From the IMG/VR virus record IMGVR_UViG_3300019376_000001: a DNA stretch of 10,584 nucleotides. One strand, written 5' to 3'. Source of the stretch: a virus (lineage: Duplodnaviria; Heunggongvirae; Uroviricota; Caudoviricetes). Below are positions 6,989 to 10,584 of the stretch, piece after piece; the first letter of the stretch is position 1, and each line of letters starts with the position of its first letter. The translations under genes and the position numbers were made by a program. The notes beneath the pieces were generated by a model. It was not told where the DNA came from, did not search any database, and was given only the letters and a program-made list of their open reading frames with translations.

Positions 6989-8740
6989 TTAGAAATAATA
7001 GGCTGTCCTTCCTACAATTTCATAGTCTTCAATAATTATCTGCGGTTTGTCGTCCCATCCACTGTTTCTTGAACAGCGGCCAACGACGTTAATGGTAACA
7101 CAACCTAACTCTGAATACAAACTTTCATATTCTTCATTAGACGACCTGAACTTAACTAAACTAATACCTTCATCCGAAGGTAAGGCTATCTTCAGAGTTG
7201 AACCGAACAAATTGAGGTTACTTGCGCTGACTTTTACATCAGTAATAACAACAATTGGCTCTTCCACTCCTTGGCCCCAAATATGCCCCAGGTCAGCAAG
7301 TTTCAGAATTTCTGAACCGTGAACCATATCTGCAAAATAAATCACATCAGGAGAATATTTTGGGGAGAAGTCTACATCTTTTAGTTTTTCATTTGCATAT
7401 GCGATGAAATCTGCAAAGTATTCATCACGAATAGATACACCAAAAGCATTATCATGCCCTTCTGCAAATTCAAAATAACCAGATTCATTTAAGAATTCTT
7501 GGAAATTAGTCAAGTCTGTACCATTAGCGTTTCGGCCGGAGCCGTCCCATGTAACATAGACATTATCTGGGTCTTCATCGTGGACAGTTCGGTTTAGAAT
7601 GAGAACAGGGCGTTGGTACCTACCCATTATTTGGTTCGCAATCAAACCTGTGATGTTTCGGTTGGACTCATTTTTGCCTTCGAGTTTTACTGCTAAGACT
7701 TGATTCTCTAAAAGATTTTTCTCTTCAATTATGCGTTCAATTATCTCCAAGCTTGCGTCTCTTGCTTTATTCTGTCTGTTTCGAATGTTTGTGCAATTTC
7801 TGCAGGCTTGCTCGACTCTCGTTTCGAACTGACCCTTACAACCACGTTTAGTGGAAGGAATCTGTTCGTAGGCACGAAACTCAAGCATAGACTCAAATAA
7901 CATTAACTTCTCTTCTACAGTTCCGACACGAGTAATCGCATTCACACCAGGTGCGATGTAGAAGGAAATTCCATGTGGCGTTACGCGGTCCTTTAGCTGG
8001 AATGCTTGCTTTGTGACCATGCCACGCAGGAATGGATTTCGAATATTGGCTAAGCCAGTATCCACTAAGTATCTTGTTTCAAAATCTCTCAAATCCATAA
8101 CGTCAGCAAGGATACCAAGAGCAACTAAATCTAAATACTGGTCTGCATAATCAACATGAAGCAATGAATCCAAATAAGAACAAAACTTATACACCATACC
8201 TACACCAGATAATGACTTGGTAGGATAGTCGTCCATTTGGTTGTTAATTACGCAAGCGTATTCAGAATAGTGAGTTGTATTGTGGTGGTCAATAACCAAC
8301 ACATCCACCCCTCTTTCGTGAAGCTCTTTGTGAATTTCAAATTCATTTGAACTTGAGTCAGGAGCAATCACAAGCTTCACATCACTTGGCACTGTCTCCG
8401 GAATGATTCCGTGAGCCTTGTTTGTATGAGGTCTATAAAAGACATTATTCTGCACAAAACCTGGGAAAAGGCAATTCAGATAATTGATAAGAACTGCCGC
8501 AGATGTAAAACCATCACAGTCACTATCAATTTGAACTAAAACTTTATGGTTCTGTGCAATGTGAGAAACCAGCATCTTTGCGCCGGTCTCTATATTGGTA
8601 ATTGTAGCCGGGTCAATTACATCGGCTACCGAGGTATGCAAATAATGATTTACCTCTTCTGCGGGAATCCCGCGGTTGACAAACACCTGTTCGACCACTG
8701 ACATATGTGGGATGCGAGGTGCTCTTAGTTGAAAATTCAT
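6989..8740 (-). CDS. recJ: RecJ-like single-stranded DNA exonuclease (DHH/DHHA1)
   Basis: DHH-family motifs IDSDCDG, VIDHH, LSGVGMVYKF, LGILADVMDL, IAPGVNAITR, GSGR and GHDNAFG. SD AAAGGAGG at 8759-8752. Confidence 0.93.
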   Translation of the reverse strand: MNFQLRAPRIPHMSVVEQVFVNRGIPAEEVNHYLHTSVADVIDPATITNIETGAKMLVSHIAQNHKVLVQIDSDCDGFTSAAVLINYLNCLFPGFVQNNVFYRPHTNKAHGIIPETVPSDVKLVIAPDSSSNEFEIHKELHERGVDVLVIDHHNTTHYSEYACVINNQMDDYPTKSLSGVGMVYKFCSYLDSLLHVDYADQYLDLVALGILADVMDLRDFETRYLVDTGLANIRNPFLRGMVTKQAFQLKDRVTPHGISFYIAPGVNAITRVGTVEEKLMLFESMLEFRAYEQIPSTKRGCKGQFETRVEQACRNCTNIRNRQNKARDASLEIIERIIEEKNLLENQVLAVKLEGKNESNRNITGLIANQIMGRYQRPVLILNRTVHDEDPDNVYVTWDGSGRNANGTDLTNFQEFLNESGYFEFAEGHDNAFGVSIRDEYFADFIAYANEKLKDVDFSPKYSPDVIYFADMVHGSEILKLADLGHIWGQGVEEPIVVITDVKVSASNLNLFGSTLKIALPSDEGISLVKFRSSNEEYESLYSELGCVTINVVGRCSRNSGWDDKPQIIIEDYEIVGRTAYYF

Positions 8741-8819
8741 ATGAAAGTCAACCTCCTTTCATACGAATCACCAAAAATCTATGAATAATGTTCAAATTCA
8801 ATTAACCACCTTTCGCCTT

Positions 8820-9164
8820 TTAGAATGGAAGTGGTACTTCATCACTAATATGAAGATTACCCTCACCCCAAAGACGAATAGCCGCAAACGGAAAGTCGAA
8901 CATAGTTGGACTGATTATGGTTCGATATACATCATATGGAATATTGCGTTGGATGTAAGCTACATTACAACGCACTCCTCTGGAACAATCACTGGCTCTA
9001 CAAACTCGCCAGAAATCTCCATTGCCGAACTCTGCAGTAGAACCACTAATTGCAGAGATTTTCTTATGGCGTAATTCAATTCCATATCTTGTATAATTTT
9101 CGATTACTTTTTCGAGCATTTCATTACCTTCTGCGGCAGTCATGCTCCAAATCGCACCTTTCAT
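8820..9164 (-). CDS. hypothetical protein, 114 aa
   Basis: ATGA overlap with the primase stop (9161-9164) and SD AAGGAG within the primase 3' end. Contains FGNGD...RASDCSRGVRCNVAYI. Confidence 0.85.
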   Translation of the reverse strand: MKGAIWSMTAAEGNEMLEKVIENYTRYGIELRHKKISAISGSTAEFGNGDFWRVCRASDCSRGVRCNVAYIQRNIPYDVYRTIISPTMFDFPFAAIRLWGEGNLHISDEVPLPF

Positions 9165-10273
9165 AGCGTTACTCTCTCCTTAAATAATTTCAAAAACTTT
9201 TCAGGTCCTTCGTCTATTGGGCTTGCTTTATAACTTGTAATCATGTGTCTATCAAATATAAAAGACAAAGTTGCAAAGTTTTTATATTTCGCATGGAGTT
9301 TCTTGAAATTGGCTACAAGATGCTGATGTTCTTTATCCCCAATCTCTTGGAACTGTCTATCGAATGCTACTATAATTTCCTTTGCGCCAGCGTCAATCAG
9401 CATTTGAATCTGATACGCTGAGATATTACTACCACAACAAGCCACAGAAATGTCATTTTCAATTCCAAAATAAGATTGATACAACAAACAGCTTTTTTCT
9501 GATTCAAAGATAATGGCTTTACCCATTATTTTAATATTTTCTTTGCTGTTGTTCAAGTTGTATAAATTCATTCCTAATGGATGGTTGTAGAGTTCTTTGT
9601 TGATACGAATCGGTCTATATTTACCGAATCGCTCGCCTTCCTCTGCACATAAGGTACGGCCACGTAACCCGATAAACCTGCCATCTTTATCAAAATGAGG
9701 AATTGTGATTTGGTCACCACCAGGATAAAAGCCAATATAATTATGTCTAATTGCTTCTTGACTAATTCCCTCGCGCAACCAAGGCGCAATCTTCAAACTG
9801 TAATTCAAGCGTGTTAAGATAATTGGGTTGAATTCCTTAAGCGTCACATGATAGTCCTTAGTCTCTGTCGCTTGGATTCGGTCATAGTTTGTCAGATGCT
9901 TCCAGTCGTCCAACTGGTCTTCGTCTTGTACCTCGTATTTTGTGGACAATCCGAATCTATATGCGACCCAGCGTACTGCATCATTTAAGTCATATTCTTT
10001 ATTTCCCTGTATAGCAGCTACTTTACTGGTCAATTCGAAAATATCGAACGAGGTGCCGCAACCCGTATAACAAGCAAACAAATCTGTATTTTCATAGTAA
10101 TATAACTTTCTACTTCCTTCTCCTGGGAGATTATGACAGATAGTAGAAGAGAGGATACCAAAGTCTGTCCACTCTGGGTCTCCTCCCCATTCTTGAAGTA
10201 ATTCAAAAATGTTATCTACTGTCAAAGCCTCACGAATATCCGCTTTGGAATAGGGGAGGTTGTTGCTATTAAT
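9161..10273 (-). CDS. dnaG: DnaG-like DNA primase (zinc-binding domain + TOPRIM); start codon uncertain (ATT 10273 proposed, TTG 10225 in the ORF track)
   Basis: Zinc-ligand pattern TICHN...CYTGC, ITIPHFD...IGLRGR, TOPRIM IIFESEKS and IIVAFDRQ. The reading frame stays open upstream of the TTG to 10276 (stop TGA at 10279-10277). Confidence 0.88.
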   Translation of the reverse strand: MNSNNLPYSKADIREALTVDNIFELLQEWGGDPEWTDFGILSSTICHNLPGEGSRKLYYYENTDLFACYTGCGTSFDIFELTSKVAAIQGNKEYDLNDAVRWVAYRFGLSTKYEVQDEDQLDDWKHLTNYDRIQATETKDYHVTLKEFNPIILTRLNYSLKIAPWLREGISQEAIRHNYIGFYPGGDQITIPHFDKDGRFIGLRGRTLCAEEGERFGKYRPIRINKELYNHPLGMNLYNLNNSKENIKIMGKAIIFESEKSCLLYQSYFGIENDISVACCGSNISAYQIQMLIDAGAKEIIVAFDRQFQEIGDKEHQHLVANFKKLHAKYKNFATLSFIFDRHMITSYKASPIDEGPEKFLKLFKERVTL

Positions 10274-10287
10274 AAGTCAACACCCTA
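10251..10287 (-). promoter_or_regulatory. putative RNA hairpin enclosing the primase SD, a candidate AUU start and the upstream stop codon
   Basis: mRNA UAGGGUGUUG (10287-10278) is complementary to CAACA (10265-10261) plus CCCUA (10255-10251), or alternatively to CAACAACCU (8 of 9 pairs). Confidence 0.55.
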
Positions 10288-10584
10288 ATACATGTACCAA
10301 GCAGGCCGTACTGCTCAGTTACATACTCGCAAAGATACTGCTGAGGGTTCTTCTTTGCATCCTGGCCGCTACGATTCTTGAGGATATTTCTTGCACATTC
10401 AGCGGACATCTTATACTCATAAGCTCTGCCCTCTACCTTCATCACAGCCTGTGCTTTGCTCTGATTTACGTTGAAGTTCTTAGGAGTATTATCTCTCTTC
10501 TGATTCTTTCTCTGTCCGTTACCCTGAGCCTTAGCCTTAGGATTTCCATTCTTATTCTTATTAAAATTCTTTCTCTGTTCAGCC
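10269..10584 (-). CDS. hypothetical basic protein, 5'-partial (104 aa visible), N/K/Q-rich low-complexity region followed by a compact C-terminal domain
   Basis: Manual translation from 10583: AEQRKNFNKNKNGNPKAKAQGNGQRKNQKRDNTPKNFNVNQSKAQAVMKVEGRAYEYKMSAECARNILKNRSGQDAKKNPQQYLCEYVTEQYGLLGTCIRVLTY*, ending TAA at 10271-10269. Not in the ORF track as a full-length call because its start is outside the window. Confidence 0.85.
   Translation of the reverse strand, partial: AEQRKNFNKNKNGNPKAKAQGNGQRKNQKRDNTPKNFNVNQSKAQAVMKVEGRAYEYKMSAECARNILKNRSGQDAKKNPQQYLCEYVTEQYGLLGTCIRVLTY

Follow-up and report, generated by a model that had tools for sequence, protein, structure and literature searches.

A gut-phage DnaG-like primase gene without a canonical start codon probably begins at an AUU that overlaps the upstream stop codon

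Introduction

Baseplate gene 26 of phage T4 carries an internal AUU initiation site. In Escherichia coli, AUU is the start codon of infC and pcnB, and near-cognate codons, AUU among them, yield 0.02–3% of the initiation obtained with AUG, depending on the construct (10.1101/063800). In Staphylococcus aureus, retapamulin profiling has mapped the start of cvfC1 to an AUU and those of ccpN and infC to AUA (PMC13009471). Translational coupling between adjacent genes is reported to work best when the spacing is -4 to +3 nucleotides (nt), and reviews of coupling leave open whether AUU is more acceptable to reinitiating ribosomes than to free 30S subunits (PMC12548453). Our literature search on phage genes with an ATT start codon found nothing relevant. 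Here we analyse a primase gene encoded in a 10,584-nt stretch of viral DNA (Caudoviricetes; IMG/VR record IMGVR_UViG_3300019376_000001; hereafter the window, meaning the whole stretch), whose coding sequence appears to begin at an ATT codon sharing a base with the stop codon of the preceding gene.

All genes of the window lie on the minus strand, on which the sequence features of the junction were checked. Gene finders place the primase start at a TTG codon. A preliminary description of the stretch had instead proposed a start further upstream, at an ATT codon preceded by a Shine-Dalgarno (SD) motif and held together with it in a hairpin, an arrangement suggested to limit primase dosage. The coordinates of all these elements are collected in Table 1.

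Results

Coding evidence upstream of the annotated TTG

The primase frame of the window is open between the in-frame TGA (10279-10277) and the TTG at 10225, with a CTT and the ATT followed by 15 more codons; the 17 open codons located 5' of the called TTG read LINSNNLPYSKADIREA. No ATG, GTG or TTG occurs in this frame between that TGA and TTG 10225. The GAGG situated 2 nt before the TTG is part of conserved Glu-Ala codons, which are kept also in relatives bearing an ATG. The sequence features given in the preliminary description were all accurate.

The database contained a total of 3,725 primase homologues, and most of the best 120 of these 3,725 are 366-368 amino acids (aa) long. Aligned homologues, whose identity to the window protein ranges from 77% down to 35% in the SPbeta-like phages, begin with M-x-x-[YF]-[DN]-K-x-E-I-[RK]-x-x-L-T. 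Their N-termini align residue for residue with L-P-Y-S-K-A-D-I-R-E-A-L-T of the window, that is, LPYSKADIREALT, and their starts fall 12-13 residues before the called TTG; the SPbeta-like primases (35% identity) align from query residue 7-11. Furthermore, the counterpart of the TTG in 48 related viral loci is an internal Leu codon, written as TTA, CTA, CTT or GTA. The earlier proposal that the N-terminus extends past the TTG is thus borne out.

Relatives sharing the architecture of the window came from three sources: IMG/VR (L001 and L002), contigs encoding members of the same protein cluster (L052, L053, L060-L087), and a pattern search of metagenomes with its anchor 3' of the junction (L055-L057). 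This set comprises 35 loci with 16 distinct junction haplotypes, and its primase DNA is 81-98% identical. Across LPYSKADIREAL, the 12 codons for L-P-Y-S-K-A-D-I-R-E-A-L, ten codon variants are synonymous and two are non-synonymous, both of the latter being singletons. The synonymous changes are CTC/CTT, CCC/CCT/CCA, AAA/AAG, GCG/GCA, ATT/ATC/ATA, CGT/CGA/AGA and TTG/CTG. The head between the ATT and L-P exists in nine versions, every one of them 15 or 21 nt long and hence in frame.

An AlphaFold2 model built from a 34-sequence alignment (mean predicted local distance difference test score, pLDDT, of 82) predicts, numbering from the ATT, a helix at residues 10-16 (K10-A16), a break at Leu17-Thr18 and a second helix at residues 19-28. 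The mean pLDDT for residues 11-20 is 84, and residues 1-6 are predicted to be disordered. The single continuous amphipathic helix envisaged in the preliminary description is therefore replaced by two. According to this model, the zinc-binding domain would have K10-A16 as its first helix, which a protein started at the TTG would lack. Because the homologue N-termini align, the variants are mostly synonymous and the indels are in frame, these sequence comparisons show that the 5' extension is translated and under purifying selection, and that the TTG is not the start.

Two other explanations were rejected. Read-through or recoding of the TGA to reach a start further upstream does not fit the use of TGA to end two window genes, nor the presence of TAA as the in-frame stop in several relatives. 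An assembly error or a slip in the CCCC homopolymer is incompatible with the occurrence of the same architecture in 35 independent loci, several of them without a CCCC run.

ATT as the candidate start codon

Between the closing stop and the conserved N-terminal residues, 14 of the 16 haplotypes (33 of the 35 loci) contain no ATG, GTG or TTG; the exception is L060/L061, which have an ATG. Since the frame is closed by TGA or TAA on one side and the L-P residues are conserved on the other, the start must lie within the 4-6 codons between them. These codons are CTT, ATT, AAT/AAG, AGC/ACA/ACC/ACT, AAC/AAT/AGT and AAC/ACT/AAT/ACC, besides the ATG of L060/L061. Only the ATT among them is a near-cognate, differing from ATG at the third position alone, and it is invariant in all 16 junction haplotypes (35 loci plus the window). 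The upstream open reading frame (ORF) ends in TAT TAA TAG, with TAA at 10271-10269 and TAG at 10268-10266. T10271 is thus common to the ATT (10273-10271) and the upstream TAA, giving the overlap ATTAA between two genes on the same strand, which is kept in all haplotypes. Taken together, the sequence data make AUU the most likely initiation codon.

The part of the earlier proposal that rests on the codon itself therefore holds well; the emphasis that it placed on the SD is not supported, as this motif is the weakest of the window and reads AGAGTC in two haplotypes. A second ATT of the primase frame, at 10237, was rejected as the start, since relatives have ATA or ATC at this place and selection acts on the L-P-Y-S-K codons that precede it.

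Loss and regain of the ATG

In the closest ATG-bearing relatives, the primase ATG and the stop of the same upstream gene overlap as TAATG. The junction of L088/L090 reads TAATG CTT CCA TAT and encodes M-L-P-Y; those of L011, L003 and L004 are similar, and that of L054 is TAA TAG ATG. The shortest form lacking the ATG (L055 type) is TAAT ACC CTT CCC TAT. It looks like a TAATG junction in which the G has been replaced by ACC, a change that would have destroyed the ATG and shifted the frame by two, bringing the pre-existing ATT of TAT-TAA into frame.

In a maximum-likelihood tree based on 990 nt of primase, the ATG-less group forms a clade with support of 97/99. L060 and L061, its sole ATG-bearing members, are nested within it, L060 being sister to L053 (100/100). 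The ATG of this sub-lineage therefore looks regained, and the simplest history suggested by the tree is one loss followed by one later regain. A monophyletic clade with a nested ATG-bearing sub-lineage implies that the ATG-less state is old and stable. Moreover, two proteins of the clade are recorded on 130 and 103 contigs. The preliminary description had allowed that a plain ATG in relatives might betray a local mutation or an assembly error. The nearest outgroups and L060/L061 do have an ATG, but because the ATG-less state is common to a well-supported clade and found on hundreds of contigs, it is neither of the two.

In L060 (positions 745-800) and L061, the junction reads ATT AAT ATG AGT AAT CTT CCC TAT, so that the ATG lies two codons past the ATT in a head of the same length as that of the window. 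A further variant was seen in four viral contigs whose primase is about 40% identical (L046, positions 1441-1545; L047, L048 and L050), where the only canonical start is a GTG abutting a strong SD. The junction of this type, TAAGGA-GTG-AT[AT]-ATT-ATA, contains an in-frame ATT and ATA 5 and 8 nt after AAGGAG. This branch may represent another non-canonical start that arose independently within the primase family.

Initiation signals and RNA structure at the junction

The AGGGTG motif is located exactly 7 nt before the ATT, as described earlier. Its duplex with the 16S tail (-6.5 kcal/mol) is the weakest among the ten gene starts of the window, the others ranging from -7.2 to -17.5 kcal/mol. AGGGTG or AAGGTG is present at 7 nt in most haplotypes, within the Arg/Lys-Val codons of the upstream protein, and the corresponding duplexes in relatives have values of -4.0, -3.9 and -2.4 kcal/mol, the last belonging to the AGAGTC of L070/L075. 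The energy required to open positions -17 to +6 around the ATT is 11.6 kcal/mol, the second highest of the ten starts, whose median is near 5 kcal/mol. At the start of the RecJ-like gene (8740; window 8705-8775, minus strand), the SD is the strongest of all (-17.5 kcal/mol) and the predicted energy of opening is also the highest (14.9 kcal/mol), which makes for a ribosome-binding site that is strong yet structured.

The larger hairpin, on which the preliminary description had relied as a gate, is indeed the predicted minimum free energy (MFE) fold of 10300-10240, at -10.9 kcal/mol. When compared with dinucleotide shuffles, however, 93 of 200 fold at least as well (z = -0.11). In relatives its register changes or its inner stem breaks (e.g. 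in L053), with single-sequence z values of -0.1 to -0.7. RNAalifold run on seven sequences found no consensus for this hairpin, only trivial helices of 3-4 bp with a covariation term of 0.02. With a z of about -0.1 and no conserved fold, a gating role for this specific structure is not sustained.

A smaller hairpin, better kept than the larger one, encloses the ATT and the TAA together with the 3' end of the SD. In an alignment of 13 distinct sequences, pairing covers 94% of its cells, vs. at most 71% when the partner columns are slid. Two of its pairs vary at both partners (G-U/A-U/C-G and G-C/A-U/G-U), and its covariation score was reached in one of 500 shuffles; nevertheless, the codons TTA-ACT-TAT-TAA already dictate its four core pairs, and the covariation rests on about two events. 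The version present in the window is itself weak, with two G-U pairs and one mismatch.

Table 1. Position of the junction elements in the window (minus strand; positions count from the first letter of the stretch)
Feature	Position	Strand	Details
Proposed full primase coding sequence	9161..10273	-	ATT 10273 to TGA 9163-9161, 370 codons
In-frame stop TGA closing the primase frame upstream	10277..10279	-	TAA in relatives L055, L056, L068-type and L084
ATT, proposed initiation codon	10271..10273	-	Sole near-cognate between the in-frame stop and the conserved L-P-Y
15 codons NSNNLPYSKADIREA 5' of the called TTG, translated	10226..10270	-	Homologue N-termini, codon variants, AlphaFold2 helix
TTG called as start by gene finders	10223..10225	-	Read as internal Leu codon
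3' part of the upstream gene (basic protein of ~100 aa)	10266..10583	-	ORF list; double stop TAA TAG
AGGGTG, weak SD-like motif 7 nt before the ATT	10281..10286	-	Within Arg-Val codons of the upstream gene
Larger hairpin, UAGGG 10287-83/CCCUA 10255-51 and UGUUG 10282-78/CAACA 10265-61	10251..10287	-	MFE fold of the window sequence
Small hairpin, 5' arm 10284-10277, loop CUUA 10276-10273, 3' arm 10272-10265	10265..10284	-	Covariation

Termination-reinitiation as the preferred explanation

Since a weak codon and a weak SD coincide with a structured site, and a step of one base suffices to move from UAU to AUU, we infer reinitiation by a ribosome that has just terminated. We consider it likely that the primase is made from the AUU at 10273-10271, mainly by termination-reinitiation after the upstream gene. 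In the proposed scenario, the ancestral ATG, which typically overlapped the upstream stop as TAATG, would have been lost in one clade through a small frame-changing rearrangement at the junction, with the primase still being produced with its conserved N-terminal helix. Initiator fMet-tRNA would start on the AUU: a ribosome terminated on the overlapping UAA would shift by one base, so that the P-site codon changes from UAU to AUU. The weak SD 7 nt upstream would help a little, and the terminating ribosome would also open the local structure. Primase output would be expected to be low and to depend on the upstream gene. Coupling to translation of the upstream basic protein is plausible, and AUU initiation, coupling and low dosage all remain deductions from the junction; that the arrangement serves to limit primase dosage, as first proposed, may be supposed at most.

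Several observations weigh against this explanation. The conservation of the ATT is inseparable from that of the upstream Tyr-stop (TAT TAA), which leaves only T10272 free to vary, and the finding of a T at this position in 16 of 16 haplotypes is weak evidence. Among five AT-rich codons, an in-frame ATT is by itself no rarity. In addition, the SD is weak, is lost in L070/L075 and differs from the extended SDs found at non-canonical starts in S. aureus, and ATTAA, with its 5-nt span, is not among the commonly enriched overlap motifs (-4, -1, -8). Finally, codon-level conservation from the AAT onward fits a +1 frameshift fusion equally well.

Alternative explanations

Two alternatives retain separate initiation of the primase. 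It is rather doubtful that ribosomes initiate on the AUU independently, driven by the SD or gated by the larger hairpin, rather than by reinitiation of a terminating ribosome. Such a mode would agree with the AGGGTG/AAGGTG found at 7 nt in most haplotypes, with the two covarying pairs of the small hairpin and with the high opening energy; on the other hand, it would have to depend on the weakest SD of the window, which is not conserved and is paired with a weak start codon, and the larger hairpin is neither significant nor conserved. A start at TTG 10225 or further downstream, with the 5' codons representing the decaying remnant of an old N-terminus, is quite unlikely. It would give a protein beginning with MTVDNIFELLQEWGGDPEWTDFGILSSTICHNLPGEGSR, and it has in its favour a canonical start codon with a GAGG nearby that is used in the automatic annotation of more than 100 cluster members. 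Nevertheless, the GAGG is only 2 nt away and belongs to the Glu-Ala codons mentioned above. Moreover, CTG replaces the TTG in one sub-lineage, L062-L067, where gene callers start 8 codons further downstream. The extension has been kept by strong purifying selection in a clade whose DNA diverges by up to 19%, and it forms a confidently predicted helix of the zinc-binding domain.

The remaining alternatives dispense with initiation altogether. That the primase is recoded, by a +1 frameshift or a short hop at UAU-UAA, and thereby fused to the basic protein, as a recent trait of one clade derived from a TAATG junction, is very unlikely. In a programmed +1 frameshift, which we regard as highly improbable, UAU UAA at the end of the upstream gene would be read as UAU and then AAU, yielding a fusion of about 55 kDa with the junction peptide VLTYNSNNLPYSK compared with about 43 kDa for the primase alone. 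The primase is read in the +1 frame with respect to the upstream gene, a stop codon would occupy the A site, a purine-rich SD-like motif lies upstream, and both the conservation from the AAT onward and the weakness of the start signals are compatible with this idea. However, tRNA-Tyr on UAU is unable to re-pair on AUU, leaving no slippery codon, and the SD-like motif lies 6 nt from the shift codon, compared with 3 in prfB, and is lost in L070/L075. Furthermore, all outgroups and the nested L060/L061 have separate cistrons, each with its own ATG, and other branches have a different gene before the primase. A bypass of the T4 gene 60 type, with take-off at TAT 10274-10272, landing at TAT 10252-10250 and fusion at Y-S-K, is extremely improbable, even though take-off and landing codons match, a stop directly follows the take-off codon and a hairpin spans the take-off site, in all 16 haplotypes. 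The putative gap acts as coding sequence: its Leu-Pro codons vary only synonymously (CTC/CTT, CCC/CCT/CCA), and its lengths of 13 or 19 nt (15- or 21-nt heads) differ by whole codons only. In addition, relatives P0006 and P0008 begin with M-L-P-Y, to which L-P-Y corresponds, and relatives have separate cistrons. Both TAT codons are explained by ancestry, one as the C-terminal Tyr of the upstream protein and the other as the conserved [YF] of the primase.

Identity of the primase and its gene neighbourhood

The primase matches the PHROG_47 DNA primase family (E=7e-35), and its family profile matches the RNA-polymerase/TOPRIM domain of Bacillus subtilis DnaG (5GUJ, E=7e-4). C46, H47, C68 and C72, corresponding to CHC2-type zinc-binding residues, are invariant in the alignment. 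Pfam gave no family for the primase at E<0.01 and none for the upstream basic protein, which had no PHROG match either. On the basis of these sequence matches, the gene is assigned to the DnaG-like phage primases (zinc finger plus TOPRIM). The linker between the zinc-binding and TOPRIM domains (residues 112-137; window ~9860-9940, minus strand) is predicted to be disordered (pLDDT <50) and is the least conserved part of the primase family alignment.

A blastn search of the region against isolated phages did not find a close relative. Among isolated phages, the nearest belong to the SPbeta-like group of Bacillus, Staphylococcus and Enterococcus, and their primases have about 35% identity over 95-98% of the length. 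The host is thus taken to be a Firmicute, in which SD-dependent initiation is expected, and the source is a phage of roughly 190 kb of gut Firmicutes. The other nine genes of the window all have ATG starts behind a recognisable SD. TGA is a normal stop in this genome and ends both the primase and the Dda-like helicase gene.

The genes surrounding the primase encode a RecJ-like exonuclease, a Dda-like helicase, an HD hydrolase, a DnaE-type polymerase and, in relatives, a DnaB-type helicase. In those relatives, the basic protein is syntenic between DnaB and the primase. This protein has about 76-107 aa (window 10266-10583, minus strand; L054:1234-1497; L062:434-733), always lies between the DnaB-type helicase and the primase, and has a conserved C-terminal motif, Y-L-C-x-Y-V-x-E-Q-Y-G-L-x-G-x-C-[IV]-[KR]-V. 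It may assist the helicase/primase as an accessory factor. Elsewhere in the window, a TAATG (5198-5194) joins the HD hydrolase gene to the next gene, and ATGA overlaps join the primase to a 114-aa gene (9164-9161) and the Dda-like helicase to a 208-aa gene (3412-3409), all on the minus strand. Overlap of stop and start codons is the normal style of this gene block.

Discussion

All automatic calls for this common gut-phage primase start at the TTG or later, and so remove at least 16 residues, the first zinc-binding-domain helix among them; any expression or structural work that follows the annotated ORF would be done with a truncated protein. The clade also constitutes a natural experiment, in which an essential replication gene has remained without an ATG through up to 19% DNA divergence, with one regain two codons downstream. 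The case would show that a near-cognate codon overlapping a stop can rescue the loss of a start codon, and L060/L061 provide a natural control for comparing expression. Furthermore, the combination of a weak codon, a weak SD and a stop overlap offers a test case for whether AUU is better tolerated as a start by reinitiating ribosomes than by free 30S subunits. The mechanism is already known in kind, and the value of the locus lies in the correction of the annotation and in an evolutionary example of rescue after start-codon loss.

As in T4 gene 60, the junction has matched take-off and landing codons and a stop directly after take-off, but the gap is not an untranslated one; the re-pairing P-site codon and the SD 3 nt upstream that characterise prfB are absent. 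With the SPbeta-like phages the locus shares a DnaG-type primase with the same zinc-finger and TOPRIM layout and 35% identity that includes the N-terminal extension, although these isolated-phage primases are at most about 35% identical to that of the window.

Among the non-canonical starts, the primase resembles infC, pcnB and cvfC1 in being a conserved gene without a canonical start, with an in-frame AUU, a properly spaced SD and a low expected initiation efficiency. Unlike the S. aureus cases, which have extended SDs, its SD is weak and not conserved, and unlike infC, pcnB and cvfC1, its AUU overlaps the upstream stop, and close relatives carry AUG, indicating a lineage-specific replacement. 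T4 gene 26 likewise yields a phage product initiated at AUU, but there the codon is an internal, extra start beside the normal one, whereas here it is proposed to be the sole start of an essential replication gene. Finally, the junction shares with the overlapping stop/start arrangements known from translational coupling (ATGA, TAATG; PMC12548453) two co-directional genes and a common base, and the outgroups use TAATG at this very junction; it differs from them in that the proposed primase start is AUU and, in the arrangement ATTAA, precedes the stop.

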